DNA from: Cyanidioschyzon merolae
Taxonomy: Eukaryota
DNA: 64,000 bases
Reading direction: 5' to 3' (one strand)
Assembly (NCBI GenBank): GCA_000091205.1
Contig: AP006501.2
Part shown: positions 5,456-63,440 of the stretch, piece by piece
Layout of the letters: each line of letters starts with the position of its first letter
Position numbering within the stretch: the first letter of the stretch is position 1
Translations under genes and position numbers: made by a program
Notes under the pieces: model-generated
The model's input: only the letters and a program-made list of their open reading frames with translations
The model's database searches: none
Told to the model about the DNA's origin: nothing

Positions 5456-6070
5456 GATTACCTCGGTTGCGCTTCAAGGCGCCTCAGCGTCTATCGTACC
5501 AAGGACTGCAACGGAAACCGGGAGCAATGAAGGAATAAATTCCGTTGAGCGATCAACTTGCGACATAGATGTACAGAACGTACAGGAGCAATCTGGGTGT
5601 CGGACACGTCTCCTTCATCGAGCGGGGAGGCGTCTCGCGCAGTGCACGCATCGCTCTCGGTGAGCGTATACCTGGGAAATCAGGCAGTCAACTGACACGA
5701 TGCGTATGCCGTTGAAGCGAAACGCGATCCTGATCAGTAGGGTGTTGTTCAACCGGAAAAAGTTGGATTTCAATTCAGGTCGTAGCCAAGAACATTTTTT
5801 CACTTCGTATTTGTTTCAACCTTCAAACAAGTCTAGACAAGTGGTTTTTCGCAGTATATGACAGAAGCGTTCAAAGAGCGTTGTTTTTTTAAAAAAACCT
5901 AAAAAAGGAAAGCTTTGAGAAAGCAAGTTGACGATCCTGGAGGCCCAGGGTCGCCGGCCGCTAGAGACAAACAAAAAGCAGTGCCGAGTCCAGAAGAAAA
6001 GGAAGAGAAGAAGAACCGAAAGCGGGATGCCCTACGTCGGAGGCGGCAAGAAACATGACTGTAGAACGAG

Positions 6071-8310
6071 ATGGAGGTGAAAACCTTTCTTCTTGGACAT
6101 ATCAAGGATCCCTACAAGGAAAAGTTGCGAGAAACTATCGAAAAACGTGTCGACTCGTACTCCTTGAGGATTATGAAGGTTTCTTCATAACTATTCCATT
6201 TGGTGAAGGAGATGTGTCGCGACGTAACCTAGATGGAAATGGTGGCATTCCGGACAAGTTTTTCGATAAGACCTTTATTCGTCACTTGATGCTTGGCACA
6301 GAGAAAGCGCGGAAGGAAAATGAGCGGGTGTATGCGCTCCACGAAAAACATCCCTTTTACAGCTTCAAGGGTACTCGGTACAAGGGTGACCGGGATGTTT
6401 ACGACTATGGGGCGATGAAGTACCTCACGAACCTGAAGAACCATTTGACAGAGAACCTCGAACGTTCCATGATACGCGCCGTGATTGCACTCTACCCGGG
6501 CCTGTCTCGCCAAGGAAAATGGGCGATTATCATAGGCATCACCAAAGATCGCAAGCATGAAGATGAGATCGAACTCGTCGACAAGAAGACATCACGTAAG
6601 AGAAAGAATGAAGCTTCTGTCATCCGTGCGGCCATACAAGTGTACCGTGCAGTCTTGGGGTTGGCAAATCCGACAGACAAGATATCAGAGTTGAAAAAAG
6701 ATAAGGAATGATACTATCGCCTCATCCTGCGCTATTTTGTGTTTCTGGACCGAGAACTCAAACGCAAGGCAGAGGCGAGGCTGAGTGGGGAAAAAATGAA
6801 GAGTGGGAGAGACGGAAGCCTTTCCTAATGGGTAAGCGCTTCGACGTGGTTCCAATGTGCAAGATCAAGTCATATTTGTGACTATTGACTCCGGCGTCCT
6901 TCACGCCATCATGAAGGAGATCAGTCCGGATTTCAGTGTCAGCGAGGAGGAGTTCTCCGGTGAAAACCGGGAGACGTACTGGAAGAATATCTTCGGTTTC
7001 AAACGCTTGCGAGTGAGCAAGGAAACGTTGTTCACCGGAATGATTGATACCGATGGAGTAGCCTAGTGTGTACACTATCGGCGGTTCAAGAAAGATCGTC
7101 CTGGTCCGCCGTCGGCTGTGCCCGTGACGAAGGATAAAGAAAAGAATGAGGCGGATCCTGCGACGCTGGTGGTGGAGGAGAACGAACTTATTTTTGACGC
7201 GGCGAAGGATGAAGAAAAGAATGAGGCGGATCCTGCGACGCAGGCGGTGGAGGAGAACGAACTTATTTTTGACGCGGCGAAGGATGAAGAAAAGAATGAG
7301 GCGGATCCTGTGACGCAGGAGGTGGAGGAGAACGACCTTATTTTTGACGCGGCGAAGGATGAAGAAAAGAATGAGGCGGATCCTGTGACGCAGGAGGTGG
7401 AGGAGAACGACCTTGTCGTTGACGTGGCGAAGAATGAAGGAAATACGGAGGCGGATCTTACAATGCAGAAAGTGCAGGAGAACGACTTTGTCGTTGGTGT
7501 GGACCCTGGAAATACGAATATCATAACCATCGCAGCACCCAAGCGCGCGGAAGATGGTACTGACGGCAACTTACGTCAGAAAGACATGCGTCTTTCGAGG
7601 TTCTCAAGAGCTAGATATTACCGAGAATCCGGTGTAATGAATGCAAGGAAGAAAACCGAGAAATGGAATTCAGGAATGAAAGATCTCCCGGAACATTTGA
7701 GCGGGGTGACGAGCCGAGGAGCCGACTTTGAAGCTTTTCGTAAATTCGTGGAAGTTCGCATGGCGCATTGGGATGTGCTGTGGGAGGAGTATACCATGCC
7801 CCGGTGGGCTCGTTTGCGTGTGAAACTGTATTGTGGGAAGCAGCGGGCGTTCGCCAACTTTTTCAATCAGTTGAGCGCCCTCAAGGAGAATGAAAATCAG
7901 AAGCTTGTAGTAGCGTATGGGGCAGGCCACTGGAAGACCCAAAAAGGAACTACGCCAGCTCCAACGACAAGAACGTACAAGGAGTGCGCACAACGTTTCG
8001 TTGCGATACCTGTAGACGAGTTCCGAACATCCTATACACACCATGAACTGGGATGTACACTTCAGCGAGTCGAGATGAAAAAGTGCCGGCGGATCCCTGA
8101 GGAAATCGCCAAGTACGGACCGCTAACAGAAGAGCAAATGGAAAGGAGCGCGAAAGTTCGCGGACTCCTTGCGTAAGTAAGTACAACCAGTGGTGGGAAG
8201 GAACGTATGGAATTCGTGAACCGAGACTTTAATGCCGCTATCAATATCCGAAAATGTGCGGTGCTGGAGGAAAGACCTCCAGAGAAGACAAAAGGCAACT
8301 TTGTTGGATA
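6071..8310 (+). pseudogene. Fanzor1-like (TnpB-family, RuvC) nuclease pseudogene with frameshifts and a nonsense codon
   Basis: Starts MEVKTFLLGHIKDP (compare MVVKTCLLAHIKDP in copy 4 and MAVKACLLQHTKDP in copy 3). Frame changes near 6200, 6711 and 7066, and a stop at 8177. Ends after CAVLEERPPEKTKGNFVG*. Confidence 0.65.
7130..7504 (+). repeat. In-frame tandem repeat, 5 units of 75 bp (25 aa, acidic: [25 protein letters not shown]), inside copy 2 immediately upstream of RuvC-I
   Basis: The units are visible directly in the translation of 7118..8176. Copies 3 and 4 have a single unit at the same position. Confidence 0.85.
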
Positions 8311-8579
8311 GCCTCTAAAAGTCGAACTATATGAGAAAAAGTTGGAAGCAGTAGTGGGTGGCCGGTCGAAAAAGGCGGGGAGGCGCCTGCGCGTCAGTTG
8401 GTGACGATTTGTCTCAGGCGCGGTTTTCCCGCCACTACTGTACATGGCCGACGTTGTTCGACTTTCGAAAGGCGTTGATCGCGCGCGAATTTCGCGCTCC
8501 ACCTCTGTTCTTTGGCGCTCTCGCAGACCTGCGTGTGAAGTAGTTTCTGGATTCTCGACGCAAGTTTCGATCTCATAGT

Positions 8580-10091
8580 ATGAACCACCGTACGCCTCTT
8601 TCGGCTCGAGGTGAAGCACGGGCTGCCTATGCAGCGTTTGTACCCGCTACTGGAACAGTGTGGTCAGCGTCGAGACACCGGTCACTTGGCCGGAGCTATT
8701 TCACGGCGTCGCGTCCCGGAACGCTCCAACCACACTGCAGCAGTCGCGGAAAGAGACACAACGTAGACTGGCTGCGCAGTGCCATGAGGGTGCAAGCTAA
8801 TGGAGCGTCGTACCCGGGACGAGGCAACGACCGCCAACTGTCTTCGTTGCCGTTATCCAGCGACAGTTCGGCCCCGCCGTGTCTGATTAAAGTTATCGGC
8901 GTCGGTGGTGGTGGCGGCAACGCAGTGAACCGTATGGCAGATACAGGTATTTCGGGTGTGGAGTTCTGGGCGATCAACACTGACGTGCAGGCGCTGAAGC
9001 GCTCGGCGGCACACCATACGCTGAGCATCGGGAATAAGCTGACCCGTGGTCTCGGAGCTGGCGGCAATCCCGAAGTGGGTCGCAAAGCCGCCGAGGAATC
9101 GTGCGACCAAATTGCAGAAGCCGTCCGTGGCGCCGACCTGGTGTTTGTGACTGCCGGAATGGGCGGCGGCACTGGTTCCGGAGCCGCTCCAGTAGTTGCA
9201 GAGGCTGCCCGCGAGCAAGGCTGCCTAACCGTGGGCGTTGTCACCAAGCCATTCGCGTTTGAAGGCCGGAAACGCATGAATCAGGCGCTGGAGGCTATCG
9301 AGGCCTTGCGCGAGAGCGTGGACACGCTGATTGTCGTGAGCAACGACAAGCTGCTTCAGATAGTCCCTGAGAACACACCATTGCAGGACGCATTTCGAGT
9401 TGCAGATGACATCCTGCGGCAGGGTGTTGTGGGCATCAGCGATATTATCATCCGCCCTGGTCTCATTAACGTAGACTTTGCCGACGTCCGAAGTGTCATG
9501 GCACATGCGGGATCGGCCTTAATGGGCATCGGCACCGGCAGTGGCAAGTCCCGGGCCCATGACGCCGCCGTGGCAGCGATTTCCTCACCGCTGCTGGATT
9601 TCCCTATCGAGCGTGCCAAAGGTATTGTTTTCAACGTCACCGGTGGAGAAGACATGACCCTGCACGAAATCAACCAGGCCGCTGAGGTAATCTACGAAGC
9701 AGTCGACCCCAACGCGAATATCATCTTCGGTGCCCTTATTGATCAGCAAATGGAAAGCGAGATATCCATAACGGTGGTTGCCACAGGCTTCCCTCAGCCT
9801 AACGAGAGCGCCAACAGTGGCGGCTCCTCATCTACATTGAATGCTACGGCAAATGAGTTTTACCAGGCTGGTGCGGCACCGTCGTCACCAAAGCTTGGGG
9901 GAACGAGCCGCCGCGGCGGCATTGCTGCGGATACCGCCACTCACTTTGGGCGTGATGCGGGCGCTCGGCGCCCAGCTCCGGGCCCTCAAGTGCCGCCTCC
10001 CAATCGTCAGGTCACACCTCCGCCACCACAGCCGGGACCGTCGCGCACCATAGGGAACATTCCGGATTTTCTGCGTCGATTCCAAAAGTAA
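8580..10091 (+). CDS. ftsZ: FtsZ, organelle-type (probably mitochondrial) division GTPase, with an N-terminal presequence-like extension
   Basis: Tubulin/FtsZ GTP-binding signature GGGTGSG ([14 protein letters not shown]), [15 protein letters not shown], and the C-terminal conserved peptide IPDFLRRF. About 110 aa of Ser/Arg-rich N-terminal extension precede the GTPase core. Confidence 0.85.
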
Positions 10092-12312: not shown

Positions 12313-15300
12313 TGCTAACTGTCTCGACGCTCCTGGCAGAACTGCTCGCCAACTGCGCCTGCGTTACCAGACAGTAAAAAGCGTATCTTCGACAAATGTC
12401 CGGCTAGCGCTGCTGTGTGATGCTATTCAGCGCTGCTGGCGACGCGGTCCAGCCGTTCAGCGAAGCGGCGCGCTCATTCGCAGCAAGTTCAGTCATGCTG
12501 CAGCCGGTATGCGAAGCGAGTGCTCCCAGACAGACTCGACCTGAGCAGGGTCACTGGATCGACCAAACCGCTGCTTCCGTAGGGAGGGCTGGTCCATGAT
12601 CAGGGGAGCATCGCAACCTCCACAAAGGCGCGGTAGTCGCTTTCATAACTGCCGACATGCATCAAGCAGCCGAGAAATTCTGGTTGAACGTATCCGTCTT
12701 ACACGGTAGAGGTGAACGGTATGCCGCCATTCGCGAACCCATGGAGTAGTGTCGATTACCTCTACTTCAGCCAGCGCTGTATGGGCTCCGGGACGCAGCT
12801 TCAGTTGGTTCTGATCGCTCGTCTAAATGTTAGCCCTAGTCCGTGGAAAAGCTCAGAAACCTCTACAGTACCTGAGAACATGCTCGGATTCCGAAATAGA
12901 CTATTCTCTAGGGGTTTCCGGTAATCAAGTCTATCAGCGCACCAAACGCGTGTTTGGGATAGAGGCTGTCGCTGCCGTGGAAACGTGCGCGCATACGCAA
13001 CAAAGTGTTTTGTACGCGCTGCACGGAGTGTCTAGTCCGCGTGACCGCCAGTGCCCTACTCAACCACCTGGATACAGGGGTTGTGGTTCATTCACGGACT
13101 GGGATGCACCGGTGGCAGCGACAGCGTCCCAGCTGCTGCACGGTGCGATGCATCACACCTCGCCGCCTAAGTAGATATATTGAGCCTTACAGGATGCACA
13201 CACTAGAGAAAACTACCTCATCTAATCTTCAATGGCCCCCATGGGTTTGTGCTGCGTCCTAGTTCCGGGTATCCGAAACTCCAGTCAGCATGGCAAGTGT
13301 GCTGCGCGTGGTGCGTTCTCGCACTCCACCGACACCCCAGCGCAAGTCGATGCCTTCAACCGAAGACAGGGACGGGTCTCGTCGCTGTTTTCATTTGGGA
13401 CCTGCTGTGCCATGCCCTTATCGGGTCAAAAAGAATCTTCAGCCCTAGGTGGCATCACCAAATTTGCTGATATTTCGAAGAAGCCCTGCAGGTATCTCTG
13501 AAATTGTCCACAGCGCGCCAAGTGTCGCAGAAGCACCCGAGGCGCAAGACGCTGGTCGTTGGCCTGCGCGCGGGTCTAGCGGCTTCAGAACGGGGATCAT
13601 CATCTTTGGCAAGCATTTTCGAAAACTGTCCCCGGATGCGATGCTGTATGCGAATAGAGCGCTGAACCCATCGCGCTGGTCTGTTGAACGAGCCCGCTGA
13701 CCTGCAACCGATCGTTCACGTGGCCTGTGCATTGGAGAGCAGGTCAACGACAAGTTCCATTAACGAGGACGACTCCCACGTGGGAAGCGCATTAACGACT
13801 GAAGACGACTGCTCCCAGTGAGATGCAACTTTGGGCGGCTCCGCTGGCTGCCAGGTCTCGGTCCGCATCCAAGGAGTACAAGTTTACCACGTATCCGGCC
13901 GGAAAAGAGTACATCATAGACACGAAGGAATGCGGCTGGGATAAAAGGTTCTGCTGCAGCATGACGCATGCCCTACCCTATGCCCGAGTTCTTGTTCGGA
14001 GCTCCGTATTCGGATACGCGGTGTGCATCCGCCGACGCGCTCAGGAGCGCACAGTTCGCCCCAGACCCCATCCTCTAAACAAGCCTCCGTACGGGAAGCA
14101 GCTCTATCTTGTTGGAACGGGCAGTACGCAGTGGCATCTCGTAGGCCGCTGATCTCGCTTTCCAGGTCACTGGTGGCACTCGCTCATTCGTAGAATCATG
14201 ATACAAACCTTCGTTCCTCCAGCATCACCATAACCATTATCATTACCATCCGCGCTGGACCTGGGAGGCGCTTCGCAGCTCGGAAAATGCCTCCCGAGCC
14301 CGCGCACTGCATCCAGTAGGGGTGGCGTGCTCGCGAATCACGAGGTCGCTGCGATGCGCGGTGCAATGATCATGCTATTGAAAAAGAACAGAGACTAGCC
14401 ATTAAATAGCACCGAGATGACGGTTTCTTTTCCCCTCTAGGGTAAACGTTAAAAAGGGCAAGAGGCTTCTATATTGTCGAAAGCTTACCTTATGCGTGGA
14501 ATTTTCCCAAAGCTTGACGAGTCTGCTAGGCAAGTGCATTTGCTCCAACCAGTGGCAGGTGCTTTCCTAACACCTGAGCAGCTCACCCGCAATACAGTTT
14601 ATTCTGGGACTAGACGCAGTAAAGCTGCATATGGGCGTCGCCCGGATCGCAGTAGACCCCTAGCATATCGCTTCGCGCTGCCGCAGGCAACAGGCTTGTC
14701 TGCGCAGCTTGCTGGCTCCCAGAATGATTACGCACTCCGACCCCGTATCAGATGCACCACACCTCGAGCCGTCCCCATCAGCAGTATGGCGAAGCGGTTC
14801 CGTCTCCGTGCCGCAACCGCACCAGCGGTATAAGCGCTACGACGAGTGCTCTCGAAAGGCACTCGGCGCAAGATAGAACGTATCCAACGACCAGTACACC
14901 CGAGAGGAACTGTGATTGGTGGAACTCGCATGCAGGCTGCATCATGATGGACACTTTCCTGAAAGCCATTATCCATTCCGAATTGTGGGATCCTTGCTCA
15001 TTGTAAACAATCTGTCGAACAAAAACACATGCAATGAACGTACGCGAGAGCGACGCTGGCGAGGAGCGCAACGCTGCGCTGCGTTTCCTCCAGCTCGAGT
15101 CTAGCCTGCGTCCAGTATTCGTGCTTGTCGAGCGGATGCGAGTCGCGACGCATATAGCGGCTTTCCAAGCGAGTCCTCTGCGAAGCTTGCGTTCGCTTTC
15201 CGTGAAGGGAGGCTCTACGACCGGGTTGAGTTGTTGCTCTATTGCTTCAGCGCGGCAAGCTGAACACTTATCGTGGCGAGCGAACGTCTCCACAGGTTGC

Positions 15301-34501: not shown

Positions 34502-35761
34502 TCAAGGTGATTCGGGTTCGGGTTCGGATTCGGGTTCCAGTTGCGCAACGATAACGCTCGCATCGTCACCCTTCCCAGGACAAACAAGTCTCGGCATGCG
34601 TTCCGATATGTAAGGATCGCAATTGGTGCAGCTGGAGAAGTTATGTGCGAGTTGTGCCAGTTGATAGCTTAACAACACTGGATCTATGTGGGTAAAGGTG
34701 CCCAAGCAGGTCCGATTCGCCACCGCCAGATTCGAATCATACGCAGAAGAGACCGGACACACCAGCGCGAGAATCTGGCTCTCACTGATATTATCGAAAA
34801 GGCCATCCGTCCCAAATATAACCGTATCGTACGCTCGTAGTCGGAACACGTCGAGGTAAATGGGCACCACATCACCCGTACACGTCTCGATCGTGATGCT
34901 GGTGCGTTGGGTTTCCGGATTCCCCTCGATGCCGTTGAGGCTCGAGAACACAATTGTTTGATCACGAATCACGAGGAACCCGATATTGCCTGTACGCACG
35001 GCATAGAGCAGATTCCCATTGTTTGCGAGACATGCCGCCAGCACCGACACCGAACGCACTGCTTCGGGCGGCCGCATATGCGTCACGGCATCACGGAGAC
35101 AGCTGAGTAGTTCGAAGCGTGGTTGCCAGTTTCGTCCTCGAGCGGTGTCTTGCTCCGATTCAGAAAAAAGCACCTGTTCAATGAACCCGTCTAAGATGTT
35201 GCGCACATGGTACTGCGCCGTGTACATATGCGCCAGTTCTACATCGCGCGTGTCCTTAATCGGTGCGAATGCCGCGCGAACAACACCACGCTCAGTGGCG
35301 TAGAGAACGTGACCGCAGTCCGCAAGGCCCACCGCGCCCTTCCCCTCGCAAACGAAGACCGTGTCCGTCGACCCCGAGAGAAGCAACGCCTCACCAGGAA
35401 ACGTTGTACCTTGTTCCGCACTAGGACGATCGCCGATGATCTGGTACGTTCCACACCGAAAGACGCACCGCTGCTCTGAGACTGCAAGCGGACGCTGCTC
35501 GTTGTGCGGCTCGCTCCGCAACGACAGTTTCGCCACGCCGCACCGCCGCTGTGCCTCGTGTGAGTGCTGACCGCGCAAACACCTCAGTGCAGACGCCGAC
35601 GAGAAGAGGCTTCCGCGATAAACACACGTGTTAATAACGAACTGCAACGGATTATCAGGTTCAACTGGCTGCCGCAACGAGCTTGGGGTTTCTTTGAACA
35701 GAGTGCCGCCTCGTTGCCTGCCGAGCGACCGCATGGCGAAAACGTACCGCCTGCTTGGCAT
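34502..35761 (-). CDS. PP2C-family protein phosphatase, PTC7/PPTC7-like
   Basis: VIFGTDGLFDNISESQILALV (compare PTC7 ..SDGLFDN..). Also GSTDTVFVCEGKGAVGLADCGHVLYA and LLYAVRTGNIGFLVIRD. The N-terminus is Arg-rich and presequence-like. Confidence 0.65.
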   Translation of the reverse strand: MPSRRYVFAMRSLGRQRGGTLFKETPSSLRQPVEPDNPLQFVINTCVYRGSLFSSASALRCLRGQHSHEAQRRCGVAKLSLRSEPHNEQRPLAVSEQRCVFRCGTYQIIGDRPSAEQGTTFPGEALLLSGSTDTVFVCEGKGAVGLADCGHVLYATERGVVRAAFAPIKDTRDVELAHMYTAQYHVRNILDGFIEQVLFSESEQDTARGRNWQPRFELLSCLRDAVTHMRPPEAVRSVSVLAACLANNGNLLYAVRTGNIGFLVIRDQTIVFSSLNGIEGNPETQRTSITIETCTGDVVPIYLDVFRLRAYDTVIFGTDGLFDNISESQILALVCPVSSAYDSNLAVANRTCLGTFTHIDPVLLSYQLAQLAHNFSSCTNCDPYISERMPRLVCPGKGDDASVIVAQLEPESEPEPESP

Positions 35762-35845
35762 AGACAGTGACCGGAAAGCTGCACCGAAAACGCCGTTGTG
35801 CTCTTCTCGAGCCTGTGTTCCGAGACCTGCACGCCGCCTCCAACA

Positions 35846-38553
35846 AACGCCGTTCTAAAGAAAAGGCTGCTGTCACCAGTGGTACAGCAGTGGCGCGCCA
35901 CGCGCCCCCCAGACAAAACGTCTCGAGCAGATGCGCAGATGCCCTTCAGATTTCTTGAACCGGCCACCCAATACTGCTTCCAACTTCTTTTCATATAGTT
36001 CAACTTTGAGAGGTTGTCCAAGAAAATTTTCTCTTGACAGCTGTGGAGGTCGTTTCTCCAGCAGCGCACATTTCCTTATATTGATTGCGGCGTTAAAGTC
36101 ACGATTCACAAACTCCATATGTTTCTTGCCATTGGTAGTTGGACTCACTAGTGCAAGCAATCCACGAACTTTCGCCCTCCTTTTCATTTGCTCTTCCGTC
36201 AGCGGTCCGTACTTTTTTACATCCTCAGGGCTTCGCTGATATTTTTCCATCTCGACCGTCTGAAGTGTGCACCCCAGTTCATGGTGTGTATAGGACGTTC
36301 GGAACTCATCTGCAGGTATCGTAGCGAAGCTCCGTGCGCACTTCTTGTACGTTCTTGTTGTTGGAGCTGGCGTAGTTCCTTTTTTGGGTCCTCCATCGCC
36401 CTGCTCCGTATGCTACTACGAGCCTTTGACTTTCATCCTCCTTCAAGGCGCTCAACTGACTGAAAAAGTTGGCGACTGCAAGCCGCTTCCCACAATACAG
36501 GTTCATAAGCAGACGGGCCCATCGAGGCTTTGTATACTCCTCCCACAGCGCATCCCAATGAGCAACGCGAACTTCCATAAACTCCCGAAAAGCGTTAGAG
36601 TCCGCTCCTCGGGTCGTCACCTCGCTCAAAGCCTCCAGGTGCTCTTTCATTCCTGAATTCCATGTAATGATTTTCTTCCTTGCATTCATTACGCCGGATC
36701 CTCGGTAGTATCTCGCTCTCGAGAACCTCAACAGACGCATGTCTTTCTGACGTGAGTTGCCGTCAGTACCATCTTCCGCGCGCTTGGGAGCAGCGATGGT
36801 TACGATATTCGTAACCCCAGGGTCCGCGCCAACGACAAAGTCGTTATCCTGCACTTTCTGTGTGGCACAATCTGCCTCCTTCTCATCTTCATGCTTCGTC
36901 ACGGACACTATCGAAGACGGAACTGGACGATCCGCCTTCAAGCGCCGATAGTGAACACACATGGCTACTCCATCGGTTTCGATCACCCCTGTGAATACCT
37001 TTTGTTTGCTCACTTTCAGACTTGTGAAATCGAAGATATTCTTCCAGTACGTGTCCCGGTTTTCACCGGTACTCTCCTTCCTGCTGACATTAAACTCGGG
37101 GCTGAACTCCTTCATGATGCCGTAAAGGATTCTGGAATCGATAGTCACAAAATGTGACTCGATGTTGGACAACGGAACGACGTTGAAGCGCTTACCCAGA
37201 AGCGCAGCCTTTCGTCTCCCCCACTCTTCATTTTTTCCTCACTCAGCTTCATCTCTGCCTTGCGTTCGAGCTCACGGTCCAGAAACACAAAGTAACGCAG
37301 GACGTGGCGGTAGTATCTTTCGTTATCTTTTTTCAACTCTGATATGTTTGCTGCTCGGTTCGCCAACCCCAGTACCGCACGATGCTCTTGTATAGCCGCT
37401 CGGATGACGGAATCCTCATTCATGCTCCTGAGTGATTTCTTCTCGTCGATGAATTCAATCTCATCTTCATGCTTGCGATCGTTCGTGTTGCCATTGATAA
37501 TCGCCCATATCCCCTGGCGAATGAGACCGGGTAGAGTGCAAAGATGGAGCGTATCATGAAGTTCTTGAGGTTCATTGTTAAATGGTTCTTTAGACTGGTG
37601 AGGTAGTTCATCGCTCCGTAGGTGTAAATATTCGAATCCCCCCCTGTATCGAGTACCGTCGAAGCGGAACTCGGCGTAAATTTTGTGGAGGGCATGAACT
37701 CGCTCATTTCACCTAGACGTTTCACCGGTGCCAAGCATCCGGTGATGAAAAACGGTTTTGTTGAGAAAATCTTCCAGAATATGGACTGTTTTGATGTCCG
37801 TAACGTCATGATACCATTTTCTTAGGAAATCCACCATTCCTTGAGAAGCGTCACGAACACCGCTGGAGTTCGGCTCGACACGGTTCCAGATTGCCTCTCG
37901 AACGTTTTCCCTGTACGGATCCTTGGTATGTTGAAGAAGACAGGCTTTCACCGCCATCTCGTCGTACCGTCATCTTTTGCGTAGCCTTTGACGTAGGGCC
38001 TCCCGCTTTTACTTCTTCTTCTTATCCTGTTCCTTTGCACTTGGCACTGTTCTTCATTTTTTCGGGCTGCCGGCGACATTGGCGCCCAGGATCCTCCACT
38101 TCCCCTCCCGTAACTTTCCTTTTTCAATATAAAAAACCGAAACAACTTTGGATGGTACAGCTATTACGCATAAAAAAGCACTTGAATACATTAGTGTGAA
38201 GGTTGAAACACGATTGAGGACAAACAATGGGCTTTTCTACGACTTGAAATCGTTAAAATTTGTACGATAGAGCTACATGCTTCATTTTTCCGATGGAAAA
38301 ACACTTACATTGACAATGGATCCCAGATTGTGCTATAAATGGGTATCGGATTTGGCGAAAGCATCCATCATGCTGCATTCTAACTCCAGATTCCATTACG
38401 TATACTTCCTTTCAGATGTACTACTCGTCTCGTGCTTCCTGTCATTCGCCGGGTGCATGCGTTGATGCACCCGCCTTAGCGTCTAATCCGCTGATGCCGA
38501 TGCATAACAGAGACAGGACAGCGTTGCCGTACTACTGAGGGCGTCGGATCGAG
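35846..38553 (-). mobile_element. Fanzor/TnpB-like element copy 3 (pseudogene with frameshifts), head-to-head with copy 4
   Basis: ORFs 37709..37957, 37420..37809, 37145..37423, 36306..37172 ([16 protein letters not shown]; HWDALWEEYTKPRWARL) and 35873..36250 (MEKYQRSPEDVKKYGPLTEEQ...FVNRDFNAAINIRKCALLE). The left end (reverse complement) at 38553 is homologous to the solo left-end repeats (cctcgatccgacgccctcagtagtacggcaacgc). The right-end motif (reverse complement) ttagaacggcgttt lies at ~35846-35860. Confidence 0.7.
35873..37957 (-). pseudogene. Fanzor1-like RuvC nuclease pseudogene (copy 3)
   Basis: Colinear with copies 2 and 4. At least 3 frameshifts. Confidence 0.6.
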
Positions 38554-38682
38554 GAATGCTCCACCTGACACAGAGTCGGAGTATAGGATCATTCTGGGAG
38601 CCAGCAAGCTCCGCAGACAGACACACTGCCTGCGATAGCGTGAAGCTATATACCAGGACTCCACCGCGACCAGATCGACGCC

Positions 38683-41476
38683 CAGATGCAGTTTAACTGC
38701 CGCTAGTACCAGAATAAACAGTGCTGCAGACGAATTGCTCAGATTTCTATGCAGCACCCGCCACTGGGTGGCGAGCACGAAGCACGTGCCTGGGGTACTC
38801 GTCTGGCTCGCGGGTTTTTCCGTCGAGAAATTCAACTTTCGACAAAACGGGAACCGTGTTTCCTTTTTATCGTTTATCGTGCAGGGAAGATAAATTGGTA
38901 TATCGTTGCTAGTTAATGGTTAGTCTCTGTTCTTTGCTCTGTATGCTGCGGTCGGTTAGCGCGCCGGGGAGATCAGGTCGTACGAGACAAGACGCACGTG
39001 TCGCCGTTGAAAGGAAACGCGAAATTGTGAAAATCCGTTTTCTTATTGTTCTACCGTACAAGTTGTATTTGCGTTAAAGTCGTAACAAAGTAAAGTTGTT
39101 TCATGCAATTGTGTTTCAAACCTCAAGTAAGTGTATACAAATGATGTTTGGCAATTCAGATCAGAAGCGTCGAAAGAACCTTCTTCTTCTTCAAAAATAA
39201 AAAAGGTTATGGAAAAGAAACTGGAGGATCCTGGACATCTGGTGTCGTCGACTGCCGGAGACTGACGAAAAACATGGCGGAGCTAAAAGGAACATGAGAA
39301 GACGATGGAGCAAAAGAGGAAGGCCCGAGGTCAGAAGCTGAACGAACCACGACAGTACGACAAGATGGTGGTGAAAACCTGTCTTCTCGCACATATCAAG
39401 GATCCGTCCCGGCGAAGGCTGCGAGAGGCCATCAGAAACCGTATCGAGTCATACTCCATGAGTGTTATGATGGCTTCTGCAGGTATAATGCATTTGGTGA
39501 AGGAGATGCGCGACGACGTAACGGGCATCAAAACAGTCGAGGTTCTGGAAGAATTTTTCGGCAAAACCTTTATTCGTCACCTGATGCTTGGTACAGGGGA
39601 AACGTCGAGGAGAAATGAGCGGGTGCATGCCCTCTGCCAAAAATACTCCTTCTACAGCTCCAACGGTACTCGAGACAGGGGTGACTCGCATATTTACACC
39701 GTCGGGTTATGAAGCACCTCACGAACCTGAAGAACTATTTGACCATGAGCCTGGAACGTTTCATGATACGCGCCGTCTGTACGCGCTACCCGGGCCCCTC
39801 TCGCGAAGGGATATGGACCATCATCGACGGCATCACAAACGATAGTAAGAATGAGCAGGAGATCGAATTTGTTCACGGGAAGACATCACGCAGGAGAGCA
39901 AATGAGGATTCTGGAATCCGTGCAGCTATTAAAGAGCATCGTGTGGTCTTGGGGCTGGCGAGTCCAGCAGAAAAGATATCCGAGTTGAAAAAAGATTCGG
40001 AAAGATACGATCGCCTCATCTTGCGCTATACCATATTCCTGAACCGACAACTGAAATGCAAGACCGATATGGAGCAGGGTGTTGAAGCAAATGCAGTGTC
40101 GGAGAAACGGAAAGCTGCGCTTCTGGAGAAGCGCGTCAACGTCGTTCCGTTGTGCAACATCAAGTCACATTTTGTGAGTATCGACTCCGAAATCCCTTAC
40201 GGCATCATTACGGAGATCTGTCCAGTGTTCGATGTAAGCAACAAGCAGTTCACCGATGAAAACCAGGAGACGTACTGGAAGAAGAATATCTTCGATTCCA
40301 AACGTCTCAGAACGAGCAAGAAAAAGGAATTCACTGGGATGATCGAAAGTGATGCGATAGCCATGCGTGTACATTATCGGCGCTTGAAGGCGGATCGTCC
40401 AGTTCTGTCTTCGTTGCCGTCGCTGGCAAAGCGTGAAGAAAACAAAGAGGCTAGCCCAACGACGCAGGAGGTGCATGAGAACCACTTTGTCGTTGGCGCG
40501 GGCCCTGGGAACACGAATATCAGGACCATCACAACACGCAATTGCGGGGATGATGGCATCGACGACAACCTACGTCAAAAAACACATGCGTGTTTTAAAG
40601 CTTTCAAGAACGAGATATTACCGAGAATTCGGTGTGATGAATGCAAAGAAGAAAAGTGGGGCGTGGAACGCAGGATTGAAAGAGCACCTGGAAGCGATCA
40701 GCCAGGTGACGGGCCGGGGAGCGGACTTTCACGCTTTTCGGGAGTTTATGGAAGTTCGTGTTGCTCATTGCGAGGCGCTGTAGGAGGAGTATACAAAGCC
40801 CCGGTGGGCTCGGTTGCGTATGAATCTACACGGTGGGAGCCAGCGTGCGTTCGCGAGTTTTTTCAATGAATTGAACGTCTTGAAGGAGAGCGACAGTCAG
40901 AGGCTCGTACTAGCGTATGGAGCAGGGCGATGGAAGACCCGAAAAGGGTGTACACGAGCTCCAACTACAAGAACGCACAAGGAGTGTGCAAGGCGTTTCG
41001 TTACGATACCTGTAGATGAGTTACGAACGTCGTATACACACCATGAACTGGGTTGTACGCATCATAGAGTGGAGATGGAAAAGTACCAGTGAAGCCCTGA
41101 GGATGTAAAAAAGTACGGAGCGTTGACGGAGGAACAAATGGAAAGCAGGGCGAAAGCTCGTGGACTACTCGCATTACTGTGTACAAACAAAGATGGCAAG
41201 AAACGTATGGAGTTTGTGAATCGTGACTTTAACGCCGCTATCAATATAAGGAGATGTGCGGTGGTGGAAAGAAGACCTCCAGAGTGGACACGATAGAACT
41301 TTGTTGCGCAATCATTCAAACTGGAACTGTATGAGAAAAAGTTGGAGGCAGTAGTAGGTGGCCTGTCCAAAAAGGCTGGGAGGCGTCTGCACGTCAGCCG
41401 AAGACGATTTATCTAGCGCGGGTTTCTCGCCACTACTGTACACGGCCGCCGGCGACGTTCGTCTTTTAGGGCGTTC
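38683..41476 (+). mobile_element. Fanzor/TnpB-like element copy 4 (pseudogene; the RuvC-I Asp is replaced by Gly)
   Basis: Left end ccagatcgacgccc at ~38683. ORFs 39305..39712, 39709..40869 ([16 protein letters not shown]) and 40814..41092 (VDELRTSYTHHELGC), then FVNRDFNAAINIRRCAVVE. Right end cgtcttttagggcgtt at ~41465-41476. Confidence 0.7.
39365..41290 (+). pseudogene. Fanzor1-like RuvC nuclease pseudogene (copy 4)
   Basis: Starts MVVKTCLLAHIKDP. Frameshifts near 39712 and 40780. D>G at RuvC-I. Confidence 0.6.
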
Positions 41477-41763
41477 CTTGTGTCGGCGATACCACGGACC
41501 AGCAGCAGGCGACCGCGCCCATCGCCCGAAAGAAGCAACCGGTTTCGCGAGCTGGACGCAGTACGGCGCTCTGCCCTGTGCGCCTTTTGTGGCTTTCAGG
41601 TACGCGGTCTACCGCTCCGGACACTGCTCCAACAGTCTGGCCGGTCCTTGATTACGACAAGTAGCGCTGAAAGCAAGCCTTTCGTGCACGGAAACTGAAC
41701 GCGAGTCGGAGCACTGTTCGTCACACAAGTGCTGGGTTATCCGTTCTCGTCCCTATCATAGAC

Positions 41764-47894: not shown

Positions 47895-48220
47895 AACTTG
47901 GTATCATGTATGTTCAATAGAGCGAAAACGTTTCGCAACCATGTAGGTTCAATGAATACCCAGGCGCAGACGCCTCCCAGCCTGTTTTGACCAGCGGCCT
48001 GCTATCGGTTTTGATTTACCCAGGTGCACCTGTAGTCTGGGAGGCTGCCCACAAAGTTGGATCGCGTCAGTTCTGCGGATCTGGCCTTCAGCACCGCACA
48101 TCGTCTGATATTGATGGTGGCGTTGAGGTCTCGGTTCTTGATCTCCTTGCGTGCAGTGCCACTGGTTGAACGCACGATTGCAAGAAGTTTTAGAACTCGT
48201 GCTCGCTGTGCCACTAGAGG
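47895..48220 (-). mobile_element. Truncated Fanzor-like 3'-end fragment (copy 7)
   Basis: ORF 48002..48214(-) reads ..LLAIVRSTSGTARKEIKNRDLNATINIRRCAVL..NFVG. Frameshifted continuation ..AGRWSKQAGRRLRLGIH (compare VVGGRSKKAGRRLRVSW). The 3' tail is deleted and degraded. Confidence 0.55.
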
Positions 48221-50482: not shown

Positions 50483-50812
50483 GCTACCCTCGAGCCGACG
50501 CCCTTTGTGCGGTACAGCAACGCAGCGCTAGCTCTATGAACTATCTGCTCCAGCGGTTCAGGCGCAAAGGCGGATACGGAACAGCAGGCACTAGGCACAC
50601 ACGAGAGGACGTGAGAAACGACCAGAATATCTGAGAAGAAGTATAGGTAATGTAACTCGGAGGTAGGGAATTCGGTGGATACTTCACCGCGCACTGAAAA
50701 AAAAACAGAAAAAGAAAAGAAAGGAAAAAGCGCGTAATCAGAGAACGCTGGCCTAAGTAAACGTTCTGTCAATGAAGAAAAATCGAAATCGCTGCTTGCC
50801 GGTGGGCGCTCA
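50483..50812 (+). repeat. Solo left-end fragment (~330 bp) of the Fanzor-like element family (repeat B)
   Basis: Pairs with 43428-43745. Begins CCTCGAGCCGACGCCCT. Truncated at the same internal point as repeat A. Confidence 0.75.
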
Positions 50813-58993: not shown

Positions 58994-60742
58994 ATGGAAA
59001 AACCCGTAGCCGACGGGCTTGAGGGACTTGAGCTCGAAAAAAAGCAAAGTCATGCACCAGATTCCGTCGCGCTCGGGAAGGAAAAGCCGGCTCGCTCTGC
59101 TGCAGCGCAGGGATCCGTGTCTGCGGAGACAAAAAAACGTGTCGAGCGAGAGACGAAAGAAGGAATAGATTGCCGCAAGGCAGATAACTTTAGTGCATGG
59201 TACCAACAAGTGGTGATCAAAGCGGAGCTCATTGAGCTCTACGATATCTCCGGCTGTTACATCATTCGACCATGGGCGTACGCCGTCTGGGAGAAGATCG
59301 TCGAATTTTTCGACGCTGAAATCAAGAAACTTGGCGTCCAGAATGCGTATTTCCCTGTCTTTGTTTCCGAACGTCGTTTGCGAACAGAGCAGGAACACCT
59401 GGAAGGGTTTGCCGCCGAGGTGGCCTGGGTGACCAAAAGCGGCTCCAGCGAGCTCGAAGAGCCGATCGCCATCCGCCCGACGTCGGAAACGATCATCTAT
59501 CCGGCGATGGCGAAATGGATACGATCGCACCGGGATCTACCCTTGAAGCTGAACCAATGGAGCAATGTCGTGCGTTGGGAATTCAAACACCCGACACCCT
59601 TCATTCGTTCACGAGAATTTCTGTGGCAGGAAGGCCACACCGCCTATGCCGATCGATCAGCAGCTGACGAGGAAGTGCTCCAGATTCTCGAGCTCTACAG
59701 GCGCATCTACGAGGAGCTGCTTGCGGTTCCCGTGATCAAAGGCATCAAAAGTGAGCGGGAGCGGTTCGCTGGCGGCCTGTACACAACCACCGTAGAGGCA
59801 TTTGTGCCCGCAAATGGCCGTGCTGTACAAGGTGCAACGAGTCACTCCCTGGGCCAGAATTTTGCCCGCATGTTTGGAGTGTATTACGAAGGCAAAGACA
59901 GCGGAGAGAAGCTCATGCCTTGGCAAAACTCATGGGGTTGCACAACACGCACCATTGGTGTTGCCGTTATGGTCCACGGAGACGACAGAGGCCTCGTATT
60001 GCCCCCACGCGTGGCACCACTGCAAGTGGTCATCGTGCCCATCATCGTGAAGAACGCCGCAGCAAACGTATCCCAAGTATGCGAGGTTCTCTGCCTGCGA
60101 CTCCAGCGTGCAAACCTGCGGGTGAAATTCGATGATCGCCCCGAGAAGACCCCGGGATGGAAATTCAACGAATGGGAGCTGCGAGGCGTCCCGCTGCGCA
60201 TAGAAGTCGGCCCTCGGGATGTGCAGTCGAAGACGATCACCATTGCACGCCGAGATACCATGGAGAAGCGAAGTATCCAGTTGGTAGATTGGGATGCGCT
60301 TGAAGCAGACGACAGCTTTGGCAGGGAAATTGCGAAAATCCTCGACGATATCCAAAAGAGCATGTTCGAAAGGGCTTCTGCTGAGCGAAACGCGCGCATT
60401 CGCTGTGTCGCAAGCTGGGAGCCGTTCATGAAAGCCATCATCGAACGTTGCCTGGCACTGACACCATGGTGCGCTGAAACCAACTGCGAGGAGCAGGTTC
60501 GTCAGAGAAGCATGCAGGACTCTGTGAGCTATCGTGAGCGCCTGGCCAACGAAGTCGACCCTGCCGCCGCGGACACTGTCCTCTCTGGTGCAGTGAAAAC
60601 GCTTTGCATGCCCTTCGCGTCCGAGCTGGAGCGGCTGCGTCTCGTTGACCGGTCAGAGTACGAGGCGCCAGCGCCTGGCAAACAGTGTTTTGCATGCGAC
60701 GCAGCAGCAAAGCGCTGGGCACTCTGGGGTCGTAGCTACTAG
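58994..60742 (+). CDS. Prolyl-tRNA synthetase, eukaryote/archaeal-type class II
   Basis: The class II core is collinear with the eukaryote/archaeal type: AWYQQVVIKAELIELYDISGCYIIRPWAYAVWE, FPVFVSERRL, IRPTSETIIYPAMAKWIRSHRDLPLKLNQWSNVVRWEFKHPTPFIRSREFLWQEGHTA, GATSHSLGQNFARMF and the C-terminal Zn-binding domain. Confidence 0.85.
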   Translation: MEKPVADGLEGLELEKKQSHAPDSVALGKEKPARSAAAQGSVSAETKKRVERETKEGIDCRKADNFSAWYQQVVIKAELIELYDISGCYIIRPWAYAVWEKIVEFFDAEIKKLGVQNAYFPVFVSERRLRTEQEHLEGFAAEVAWVTKSGSSELEEPIAIRPTSETIIYPAMAKWIRSHRDLPLKLNQWSNVVRWEFKHPTPFIRSREFLWQEGHTAYADRSAADEEVLQILELYRRIYEELLAVPVIKGIKSERERFAGGLYTTTVEAFVPANGRAVQGATSHSLGQNFARMFGVYYEGKDSGEKLMPWQNSWGCTTRTIGVAVMVHGDDRGLVLPPRVAPLQVVIVPIIVKNAAANVSQVCEVLCLRLQRANLRVKFDDRPEKTPGWKFNEWELRGVPLRIEVGPRDVQSKTITIARRDTMEKRSIQLVDWDALEADDSFGREIAKILDDIQKSMFERASAERNARIRCVASWEPFMKAIIERCLALTPWCAETNCEEQVRQRSMQDSVSYRERLANEVDPAAADTVLSGAVKTLCMPFASELERLRLVDRSEYEAPAPGKQCFACDAAAKRWALWGRSY

Positions 60743-61346: not shown

Positions 61347-61598
61347 CTATACCCGCGTAGCGGCTGGTGCACAGACCGGAACCGCTCTGCTGGGACACCA
61401 CGCCTCTACGTCATAGATGACCCGGATGCGAAGCGAGCACGACGGGCACTTGGCAATCTGTTCCCCACGCCGCATTTCTGCGACTGTGAGAACGAATAGG
61501 TCCCCACACGGGCAATTGTACGTGTACCTCTGGGCATCTTCTTCATAGTTCATATCTTCGATCTCGACTTCGTCGTATACATTAGTCTCTGTTTCCAT
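61347..61598 (-). CDS. DPH3: DPH3/KTI11 CSL-type zinc finger (diphthamide biosynthesis protein 3)
   Basis: METETNVYDEVEIEDMNYEEDAQRYTYNCPCGDLFVLTVAEMRRGEQIAKCPSCSLRIRVIYD matches DPH3 (HDEVEIEDFQYDED..YFYPCPCGD.F..T.E.L..GE..A.CPSCSL.IKVIYD). Confidence 0.75.
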   Translation of the reverse strand: METETNVYDEVEIEDMNYEEDAQRYTYNCPCGDLFVLTVAEMRRGEQIAKCPSCSLRIRVIYDVEAWCPSRAVPVCAPAATRV

Positions 61599-61671
61599 TC
61601 CCTGGTCGTTATCCACGAAGCGTTCGCTCGAATGACGCACCCGGTGAATGCGAAGACAACCCTGAAAACAA

Positions 61672-62194
61672 ACCCCTTTCAAAAGAAAAACGTTGCTGCC
61701 AACGGTGTACGGTAGTGGCGACCAGCGCCTAAGCCTTGACGTCTCCAACTGACGTGTAGACGCCTCGCCGTCTTTCTGGACCGGCCGCCTACAACTGGTT
61801 TCAATTGTTTCTCATATAGTTCCACTTTGAGAGGGTGTCCCACAAAGTTCACTCTTGTCCACTTTGGAGGCTTTTTCTCCATCATCGCACATCTCCCTAC
61901 ATTGATTGCTGCGTGAGAGTCTCGGTTCGCAAATTCCATACGTTTCTTGCCATCACTGGTAGTACTTACTAGTGCAAGCAAACCACGCACTTTCGCTCTC
62001 CTTTCCATTTGATCTTCCGTCAGCGCTCCGTACTTTTTTATATCCTCAGGGCTCCGCTGGCACTTTTCCATCTCCACTCTCTAAAGAGTACACCCCAGTT
62101 CATGGTGTGTATAGGACGTTCGGAAAGCATCTACAGGTATCGTGACGAAACGCCGTGCACACTCCTTGTGCGTTCTTGTCGTTGGAGCTGGTGT
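61672..62194 (-). mobile_element. Truncated Fanzor-like 3' half (copy 5a), inverted with respect to copy 5b
   Basis: Reads ..APTTRTHKECARRFVTIPVDAFRTSYTHHELGCTL*RVEMEKCQRSPEDIKKYGALTEDQ..FANRDSHAAINV..NFVGHPLKVELYEKQL.. on the minus strand. The tail ttttgaaaggggtt ends at ~61672, 74 bp upstream of the DPH3 ATG. Confidence 0.65.
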
Positions 62195-62615
62195 ACACTC
62201 CAGAGGGTGGAGATGGAGAAATGCCAGCGGAGCCCTGGGGATATAAAAAAGTACGGAGCGCTGACGGAAGGTCAAATGGAAAGGAGGGCGAAATTTCGTG
62301 GATTGCTTGCATTAGTAAGTACAACCAGTGATAGCAAGAAACGTATGGAGTTTGTGAACCGAGAACTTAACGCGGCAATCAAGGTAGGGAGTTGTGCGGT
62401 GATGGAGAAAAGACCTCCAGCGTTGACCAGAGAGGATTGTATGGGGCAACCTCTCAAAGTGGAACTATTTGAGAAAAAAATGAAACCAGTAGTAGCTTGG
62501 CGGCCCAGAGAGGCTGGGAGCCGTCTGCACCTCAGCTGGAGACGATTTGTCCAAGGCGCGTTCGCCGCCACGACTACACACCGCTGGCGGCAGCGGTTCT
62601 CTTTTGAAAGGCGTT
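62185..62615 (+). mobile_element. Truncated Fanzor-like 3' fragment (copy 5b)
   Basis: CTLQRVEMEKCQRSPGDIKKYGALTEGQ...FVNRELNAAIKV...PLKVELFEKKM.. The tail tcttttgaaaggcgtt ends at 62606-62615, 28 bp upstream of the ATG at 62643. Confidence 0.65.
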
Positions 62616-62642
62616 ATCGGACTAGCCTCTGATTCATCAAGG

Positions 62643-63440
62643 ATGGTGCTGTTTGAAATTGAATATCGAGTGCGGCTTCCTCGGGAGGAGATGTGGAGCC
62701 TGCGAGAAGACCCTGAGTTTTTGCGTTGGCAGTATGAGCACTCCTCCGATATGAGCAACCTGGAAATTGTGGAGAAAAACGTCGACGCAGCCGACCCCGA
62801 CCGCATAACCGTGACGTGGCGGATAACACCTAGCGTGCCGCTGCCGCAGTTTGTACTTGCGTACGTTGGCGAAGGTGCTGGCATCTACATCGAAGACGTT
62901 CACGAATACCGCCTGTCGAAGCCGTACTACATCAACTTCCGCAGCCATCCGAATATGTTTCAGGAGTACACCGAGACCAGGGGTGAGTGCGAGTTCGTTG
63001 ATGAACCTGCTGACTCCGCGGATGCCCAGGCTGGAACACGCGTCTGCATCCGAGGAGAGGTGATTGTGAACGTCCCGCTTGTGGGGCCTTACGTCGAAAA
63101 CTTCGTGGTGAATAACTTGCGGAACTTTTACACGGGGTTTCCAGACCTGGTGCATTCATATGTAGCGGCCAAAAATGGACGTTTGAACCCCGACGACAGT
63201 CAGATGTGGTTGAACCCGGAGTCATCGGTGCATGTACAACCGAATACCGCAGAGGCAAACGAGGCGAGTGCCATCCACGGGGCTGGCGCGGATGTGGCCC
63301 CTGCTCTGGCGGCTCTGCAGCGCTCGCTACCGCCATCGGTCGACGCGTCACTGGCATCCGTGCCAGTGGCTTCTGGCGCCCCTGAAGCGATCCCAGAGTC
63401 CATACAAGCGCCAAGAAGATCATGGTGGCCATGGCAATGA
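62643..63440 (+). CDS. Hypothetical protein (265 aa)
   Basis: The ORF is open from 62547, but the first 32 codons overlap the Fanzor fragment tail, so the start is taken as MVLFEIEY at 62643. No family recognised. Confidence 0.4.
   Translation: MVLFEIEYRVRLPREEMWSLREDPEFLRWQYEHSSDMSNLEIVEKNVDAADPDRITVTWRITPSVPLPQFVLAYVGEGAGIYIEDVHEYRLSKPYYINFRSHPNMFQEYTETRGECEFVDEPADSADAQAGTRVCIRGEVIVNVPLVGPYVENFVVNNLRNFYTGFPDLVHSYVAAKNGRLNPDDSQMWLNPESSVHVQPNTAEANEASAIHGAGADVAPALAALQRSLPPSVDASLASVPVASGAPEAIPESIQAPRRSWWPWQ

Follow-up and report, generated by a model that had tools for sequence, protein, structure and literature searches.

Eukaryotic TnpB-like nucleases of the Fanzor1 type, which act together with an omega-RNA, include SpuFz1 from Spizellomyces punctatus (PDB 8gkh) and the Fanzor1 protein of Parasitella parasitica (PDB 9cf0) (Saito et al. 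2023, PMC10432273). A DNA element of this kind in Cyanidioschyzon merolae is CMe-1A, which has been reported to occur in ~150 copies of ~3 kb that are ~80% identical to their consensus (Bao & Jurka 2013, Mobile DNA 4:12, PMC3627910). CMe-1A has no terminal inverted repeats, its target-site duplications were left undetermined, and its 5' 635 bp are common to the element TE-N2_CMe (PMC3627910). Here we analyze a window of 64,000 nucleotides from C. merolae 10D chromosome 19 (locus tags CMS; contig AP006501.2 of assembly GCA_000091205.1), in which two 3'-end fragments of CMe-1A lie inverted to each other between the divergent genes DPH3 and CMS026C. We find that these fragments make up most of the upstream sequence shared by the two genes, and that the locus is probably an ordinary transposon relic, passively co-opted as the upstream sequence of both genes, rather than the seat of a conserved element function.

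Results

Two inverted CMe-1A fragments occupy the DPH3/CMS026C intergenic region

The start codons of DPH3 (position 61598) and CMS026C (position 62643) delimit a divergent intergenic region of 1,044 bp, and both starts, as given in a first-pass annotation of this DNA, agree exactly with the NCBI proteins. That annotation had also proposed that two inverted 3'-end fragments of a TnpB/Fanzor-type element occupy the region, and this is confirmed by a repeat finder, by alignments and by comparison with other copies of the element. The repeat finder identified two inverted arms (61725-62094 and 62190-62559) that are 83% complementary and separated by 95 nt, together with an outer inverted segment (61671-61728 and 62558-62615) of 78% complementarity. 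The first fragment, which we term 5a (61650-62196, minus strand, 547 nt), is a 5'-truncated CMe-1A copy that runs from approximately consensus position 2012 to the 3' terminus of the element and is 78.5-80% identical to four longer copies in the window, named A-D. The second fragment, 5b (62191-62615, plus strand, 425 nt), is likewise 5'-truncated, runs from approximately consensus position 2113 to the motif GGCGTT and shares 75.5-78% identity with copies A-D. Both consensus starts were taken from contig L040, which contains an orthologous copy of 5a with 98.9% identity. Alignment with other copies revealed the terminal TGTTTTCAGGG of the element beyond position 61671, thus placing the end of 5a at 61650. 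The element continues for 11-12 nt beyond GGCGTT (TGTTTCCAGGGG in one subtype), and 5b, which stops at 62615, is without these last 11-12 nt.

Aligned pairwise over 425 columns, 5a and 5b match in 349, differ in 74 and have a gap in 2, corresponding to 82.5% identity. Since 5b begins ~100 nt further towards the tail of the element than 5a, the palindrome has a loop formed by a single-copy spacer of 95 nt (62095-62189, minus strand), composed of 5a sequence that has no counterpart in 5b. At the junction, alignment of 5a, 5b and other copies defines a 6-bp microhomology common to both fragments (62191-62196; GGTGTA, or TACACC on the 5a strand), which contains no single-nucleotide polymorphism (SNP). 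Element sequence accounts for 966 of the 1,044 intergenic nt (92.5%). The remainder consists of 51 nt separating 5a from the DPH3 start codon (61599-61649), which have no homology to other copies past the terminal TGTTTTCAGGG and carry 3 SNPs among the 11 haplotypes described below, and of 27 nt separating 5b from the CMS026C start codon (62616-62642), as defined by comparison with other copies. The first-pass annotation had located the junction at ~62185-62194, had estimated ~85% identity and had regarded the intergenic region as entirely element-derived. The head-to-head join, the homology and the predominance of element sequence all stand, with the position, the value and the extent replaced by those given above.

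When folded, a 964-nt sequence spanning the pair forms one long imperfect hairpin with an energy of -651 kcal/mol, compared with -306 +/- 9.5 for shuffled sequences (z = -36), and the inverted repeat is therefore not a product of chance. It is next to impossible that the similarity arose by chance or convergence, or that mis-assembly produced the palindrome. Copies of the CMe-1A repeat are places where metagenome contigs tend to break, but the same structure recurs in 10 contigs that several projects assembled independently, besides the finished 10D chromosome. The two arms moreover differ at 17.5% of positions, which argues against a fold-back chimera created by an assembler, and homology over 425-547 nt to dozens of copies (blastn E to 1e-134 against the in-window copies) is hard to reconcile with a fortuitous match.

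Both fragments derive from a Fanzor1 family and have lost the nuclease

We compared the two arms to the rest of the window and found that both match the 3' parts of copies A (~1225-3400, plus strand), B (5745-8490, plus strand), C (35830-38248, minus strand) and D (38283-41490, plus strand, 3.2 kb), bringing the total to six copies in 64 kb. All in-window copies retain their 3' end, with 5' ends truncated to varying degrees, and solo 3' fragments of several lengths are found at other loci. To these we added metagenome contigs of Cyanidioschyzon, from which the best 80 of >400 matching stretches were sampled; copies at the sampled loci are 78-89% identical to the consensus. The majority consensus encodes a 704-amino acid protein containing the motifs VVGVDPG, VDEFRTS and NRDFNAAINI. 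Pfam searches with single element open reading frames (ORFs) and with the consensus returned no significant match (the only one for the consensus, PF07282, Cas12f1-like_TNB, lying far below threshold at E = 0.59), and a PDB search with the consensus alone returned none, so that a profile of homologues was needed. A database search with the element protein retrieved 56 relatives, mostly from JGI metagenomes and some of them just 29-43% identical. Many of these homologues carry the precomputed Pfam label PF26935, which a Pfam scan of the same proteins did not return. A profile built from 13 homologues matches the Fanzor1 structures of P. parasitica (9cf0, E = 2.4e-16) and S. punctatus (SpuFz1, 8gkh, E = 2e-8). 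The RuvC-I, -II and -III motifs align with those of the Fanzor1 proteins in the PDB (IDEFRTS in Fanzor1, and NRDQAAVLNF in Parasitella Fanzor1), and the split RuvC triad of Asp, Glu and Asp is present in the consensus and invariant or nearly so across the 13 homologues. Judged by these sequence comparisons and by its agreement with the published description, the element from which both fragments originate is CMe-1A, an already known family of the Fanzor1 (eukaryotic TnpB-like) type.

A complete, potentially active Fanzor is not encoded at the locus: 5a begins just upstream of RuvC-II and 5b after it, and neither contains RuvC-I. In 5a, sequence and alignment show a RuvC-II remnant in which the catalytic Glu is replaced by Ala (VDAFRTS, consensus VDEFRTS; 62114-62134, minus strand), and translation gives a RuvC-III remnant that keeps its catalytic Asp (NRDSHAAINV, consensus NRDFNAAINI; 61898-61927, minus strand). 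The translated RuvC-III remnant of 5b reads NRELNAAIKV (62357-62386, plus strand), with the catalytic Asp changed to Glu. It had been noted earlier that RuvC-III is mutated in both fragments; the motif readings are correct, but the catalytic Asp is lost in 5b only and is intact in 5a. With RuvC-I and ~80% of the protein missing, both fragments are unable to make a nuclease and are dead by truncation alone.

The pair is confined to the C. merolae lineage and evolves without detectable constraint

Orthologues of CMS026C share 62% identity with it in Cyanidiococcus yangmingshanensis, 60% in a third lineage and 54% in Cyanidium caldarium. The gene order Vps52-ProRS-DPH3<>DUF2505 is kept in Cyanidiococcus and in the third lineage and not in C. 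caldarium. The DPH3-DUF2505 spacers of the first two measure 922 bp and ~731 bp, respectively, and contain neither a blastn/tblastn match to the element nor an inverted repeat >27 nt. Comparison of orthologous loci, which the first-pass annotation had put forward as a check, hence returns related spacers that are similar in size, unrelated in sequence and devoid of element homology, which shows that the pair is specific to the C. merolae lineage and arrived after the split from Cyanidiococcus. The ancestral spacer has thus been replaced or has become unrecognizable.

Within C. merolae, the inverted pair is found in 10 of 10 hot-spring metagenome contigs (L002-L011), which carry the locus at 99.2-99.5% identity. 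Together with 10D, these environmental contigs provide 11 haplotypes with 63 segregating sites in 5.1 kb. SNP density reaches 42/kb in 5a and 19/kb in 5b, compared with 4-16/kb in three coding sequences and 5-13/kb in other intergenic DNA, and SNPs are enriched in the fragments over the rest of the locus with an odds ratio of 4.0 (p = 2e-7). The density in 5b is near the synonymous-site level of the adjoining genes, that in 5a about threefold above it. Exapted sequence would be expected to have lower diversity than neutral sites or to be conserved across species; here we find an approximately fourfold SNP density, and the pair is absent from two related spacers.

The SNPs of 5a (61711-61997) fall into linked clusters. 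Seven sites within 90 bp separate two haplotype groups, and four changes private to 10D lie within 22 bp (61864-61885). No donor paralogue for the 5a block 61735-61860 was found among the sampled paralogues. In the block 61960-62010 the alternative haplotype differs least from the other arm (2 mismatches), an observation that is not decisive for conversion. Ectopic conversion, conversion between the arms and palindrome-associated mutation are all possible sources of these clusters.

The 3' end of the family contains a conserved terminal hairpin, which has at most one mismatch in 50 of 57 copies. It came to our attention through the terminator-like matches of a bacterial promoter scan, a tool otherwise unsuited to a eukaryote. 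The hairpin occurs in two subtypes, CGTCGTTCG-ACTTT-CGAACGGCG and CGTTTTTC-TTTT-GAAAGGCG (for example at window positions 8450-8488, L089:1670-1712 and L019:3165-3206), which a compensatory pair tells apart (24 copies have G-C and 16 have T-A). It is followed by TT and a subtype-specific terminal stretch, either GATGGTG or TGTTTCCAGGGG. The hairpin may represent a cis signal of the CMe-1A transposon. It might belong to an omega-RNA encoded at the 3' end of the element, and a signal read in DNA would account for it equally well; RNAalifold returned no consensus structure for the last 200 nt of 53 copies. In 5a, the stem, read by hand, has the form CGTTTTTC-TTTT-GAAAGGGG (61663-61682, minus strand) and retains 7 of 8 pairs, with a tail fold z of -0.79 against shuffles. 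The degraded hairpin of 5b, CGGTTCTC-TTTT-GAAAGGCG (62594-62613, plus strand), retains 6 of 8 pairs and is absent from the minimum-energy fold of the tail (z = -0.28). The tails of two intact-looking copies fold with z = -3.5 and -2.2, whereas those of 5a and 5b fold no better than shuffles. The two hairpins are thus among the more degraded ones of the family, and neither fragment has a good element terminus.

We next consider whether selection keeps the tails for a function of their own, be it an omega-RNA-like transcript running into the gene starts, a small protein or a regulatory hairpin. Both arms do have a frame that is open from an internal Met to the end in 11 of 11 haplotypes (130 and 139 amino acids), the polymorphisms in these frames (12 synonymous, 16 non-synonymous) include somewhat fewer non-synonymous changes than a naive neutral share, and the pair is fixed in all sampled strains. 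The last 112 codons are, however, open in 35 of 85 family copies (41%), such that two open frames would be expected in ~17% of pairs, and we therefore rejected the open frames as a sign of selection. A low ratio of non-synonymous to synonymous substitution rates (dN/dS) likewise characterizes the family in general, and its dead copies too: relative to the consensus, the last 112 codons of 85 tails have a median dN/dS of 0.26, alike for open and closed copies, which dates this selection to active lineages before insertion. As most divergence between copies arose under protein selection, insertions in this family are younger than their percent divergence from the consensus implies. A role as RNA fares no better, given the degraded terminal hairpins, the tail folds described above and the failure to derive a consensus structure. 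Rfam matched no family on the pair, returning just sub-threshold microRNA-like matches caused by the hairpin. C. merolae is reported to be without RNA interference machinery (PMC11376382), so that no known small interfering RNA pathway would be there for a long hairpin RNA to enter. Finally, SNP density at the locus peaks in the fragments, and the pair is absent from the orthologous Cyanidiococcus spacer. We hence see no sign of the tails being preserved for a coding role, for an RNA or for a role as transposon ends, and regard selection for a function of their own as very improbable. The first-pass annotation had concluded from the mutated motifs that the tails are kept for a role beyond the nuclease. 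This is not supported, in view of their truncation, their SNP density, their degraded hairpins, the 41% of open frames and the general tendency of element ends to face gene starts. For truncated transposon fragments, a step from mutated motif to functional retention is unsafe.

CMe-1A copies sit mainly in divergent intergenic regions

To place the pair in the context of its family, we clustered tail flanks from 79 further loci (L012-L090) and the window into 49 distinct sites. Among ORFs of 150 amino acids or more, the one nearest downstream of the tail runs away from it in 30 cases and towards it in 13 (p = 0.014, with the DPH3 case corrected by hand), and the first ATG of the next long ORF is often located 2-60 nt past the tail. 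We rejected the notion that tails specifically point at gene starts, since heads face gene starts as well, by 18 to 6, or 14 to 6 after removal of repeated neighbors. These counts show that CMe-1A sits mainly in divergent, promoter-containing intergenic regions, where a head-to-head pair necessarily aims both of its tails at gene starts. Each arm at the DPH3/CMS026C locus does point at a gene start, as stated in the first-pass annotation, but this has no special meaning in a family of which both ends generally face gene starts.

Two insertions are favored over a single fold-back as the origin of the pair

How did the two fragments come to lie head to head? The locus is a decayed head-to-head pair of 5'-truncated CMe-1A copies, and we consider it likely that it arose by two insertions, loss of the inner parts, drift and passive co-option. 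In this order of events, two CMe-1A copies would first have inserted with each 3' tail beside one gene start, a placement and orientation typical of the family. The inner (5') parts would then have been lost, with the break rejoined at the 6-bp microhomology, and the sequence would since have drifted without detectable constraint. A possible precursor arrangement is present in the window, where the complete copies C (minus strand) and D (plus strand), ~76% identical, are arranged head to head, their 5' ends ~35 bp apart. C, like B, has the short 5' form. D is longer on its 5' side by ~760 nt, which include a TE-N2_CMe-like segment (38283-38940). About 85 nt separate the tail of C from the start of a gene at 34502-35761.

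The competing explanation is a single fold-back (snap-back), in which one 5'-truncated copy, or an intermediate in its replication or repair, primed on itself at a short palindromic microhomology ~100 nt away. The arms of the resulting tail-loop-tail palindrome would have been identical at first and have since diverged to 82.5% identity. Several observations weigh in its favor and count against two insertions. Inverted arms, breakpoints only ~100 nt apart (~consensus 2012 and 2113), a short single-copy spacer of 95 nt and a 6-bp microhomology form a classic fold-back signature, and such near symmetry would be expected in ~7% of cases for two independent breakpoints in 3-kb copies. Each arm ends on its outer side at the element terminus, and the flanks beyond are unrelated. 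In a neighbor-joining tree of 85 tails, 5a and 5b are sisters (135 of 200 bootstraps, 67.5%), and they share 22 derived states, more than either shares with any other copy, 2 of these being exclusive to them. Near-symmetric head-to-head junctions are also known from other loci (1559|1529 in L051, 1535|1489 in the L057 group). The arms of 5a and 5b are nevertheless as divergent as random copies, and distances in the family fit a star phylogeny. A fold-back at a break site would have duplicated flanking sequence too, and no flank duplication is seen. Copies C and D, for comparison, are only 76% alike.

Further evidence comes from changes private to each arm. Those of 5b (8 synonymous, 21 non-synonymous) fit neutrality, and those of 5a (11 synonymous, 14 non-synonymous) contain a synonymous excess over the neutral expectation (p = 0.013-0.049), which would be unexpected if 5a had begun as an identical twin of 5b and decayed where it lies. 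The dN/dS between 5a and 5b is 0.45, a value that we count for two sources rather than one. The excess in 5a is weak, however, and ectopic gene conversion could cause it, and closer paralogues of either arm may exist beyond the best 80 of >400 stretches. Taken together, we favor the route by two insertions and regard a fold-back as possible though rather unlikely; the present sequence would be a relic either way.

Head-to-head pairs recur elsewhere in the family. A palindromic junction at consensus 1535|1489 is colinear, with 83-90% identity, in L057 (= L058), L087, L089, L069 (= L079) and L032. It joins two inverted 3' halves of ~1 kb each (the first ~1.7 kb of each locus), with unrelated flanks and with homology ending at the tail. 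A separate, independent junction (1559|1529) occurs in L051:1-520. The "minus" arms of the 1535|1489 loci are 95-97% alike between loci and 75-76% identical to their own "plus" arms, the latter value ranking 31st-38th of 71 against a family median of 83.6%. We therefore ruled out sister arms at these other loci as general support for fold-back formation, as the arms there are not each other's relatives. Every contig with a palindromic locus breaks inside one arm, and complete elements are outside the view of these data. The 1535|1489 junction is thus colinear in four or more distinct loci, in which homology stops precisely where the tail does, a hint that a palindromic CMe-1A derivative may itself have spread. 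A broader proposal would be that head-to-head dimers are a mobile or recurrent form of CMe-1A, a family without a transposase that would need in cis only its 3' terminal region, with the hairpin and the presumed guide-RNA end, in order to spread. The DPH3/CMS026C pair would then be one such insertion, which took the place of the ancestral spacer and now serves as a transposon-derived bidirectional promoter. We consider this proposal improbable.

Flanking genes and other element-related sequences

DPH3 (CMS025C; 61347-61598, minus strand) encodes an 83-amino acid protein with a CSL zinc finger (Pfam PF05207, E = 1.9e-23) that is an exact match to BAM82675 / XP_005538711. CMS026C (62643-63440, plus strand) encodes a DUF2505 protein of 265 amino acids (Pfam PF10698, E = 3.4e-11), an exact match to BAM82676. 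Exact protein matches also place prolyl-tRNA synthetase (BAM82674) at 58994-60742 and FtsZ2-1 at 8580-10091. A literature search for the CMS locus tags and for C. merolae transcription start site data returned nothing usable.

The Fanzor ORF includes a 75-nt tandem repeat encoding an acidic unit, located at 7118-7500 in copy B and found also in P0001 and in many loci at consensus 1484-1563. Copies differ in how many units they have, with approximately four in B and one in D. Three further segments (47966-48184, 14383-14977 and 50488-50666) gave weak matches to the element; one piece of ~170-220 nt is 67-69% like its 3' region, and two of the pieces are 68-72% like the TE-N2_CMe-like 5' part of copy D.

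Discussion

Transposon-derived promoters and transposon insertions in 5' gene regions are a general phenomenon in compact genomes. At the DPH3/CMS026C locus, just 51 and 27 nt of non-element DNA are left beside the two start codons, and the spacer of relatives is unrelated and of similar size. This suggests that the promoters and 5' untranslated regions of both genes now lie in or right beside the element tails. The geometry of the locus is the basis for this part of our interpretation. Two conserved genes would thus share an upstream region that is 92% Fanzor element, with an unrelated spacer of similar size in the sister genus. As C. merolae is amenable to gene targeting by homologous recombination, the question of whether a tail acts as a promoter can be addressed experimentally in a very compact genome. 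In common with transposon-derived promoters, the locus has element sequence upstream of two start codons and belongs to a family that mostly faces gene starts. It differs from them in that polymorphism reveals no sequence constraint here, and in that the promoter activity of the tails is deduced from their position.

Fold-back inversions and other palindromic rearrangements form by microhomology-mediated template switching or end joining. The DPH3/CMS026C pair resembles this class in its inverted arms, its 95-nt single-copy spacer and the 6-bp microhomology at the junction. It departs from it in three respects: the arms resemble each other no more than unrelated copies do, transposon termini mark the outer ends, and flanking DNA has not been duplicated.

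Taken by itself, the locus is a routine transposon relic of an already described family, though the locus and its arrangement are not part of the published account (PMC3627910). The features shared among copies, namely kept 3' ends, a conserved terminal hairpin with a compensatory pair, positions at gene starts and recurrent head-to-head pairs, bear on how a Fanzor1 family that has neither a transposase nor terminal repeats can be mobile.

Finally, we compared our sequences to the Fanzor1 systems described so far. The family consensus aligns with SpuFz1 (8gkh) and Parasitella Fz1 (9cf0) (Saito et al. 2023, PMC10432273) across RuvC-I, -II and -III. In contrast to these experimentally characterized nucleases, the two fragments, known here from DNA alone, are without RuvC-I and carry a mutated RuvC-II (5a) or RuvC-III (5b). 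The aligned tails of the family yielded no omega-RNA structure. The element agrees with CMe-1A of Bao & Jurka (2013, PMC3627910) in genome, protein family, pattern of copy number, identity and length, and lack of terminal inverted repeats. A 5' part of ~650-660 nt also occurs solo (L080-L082, L090), in line with TE-N2_CMe. To the published description, which is without this locus, the head-to-head pairs, the terminal hairpin and the position of copies relative to genes, our analysis adds these four features. Relative to full CMe-1A, the DPH3/CMS026C locus holds only the last 547 and 425 nt of the element, arranged head to head and with no nuclease coding.

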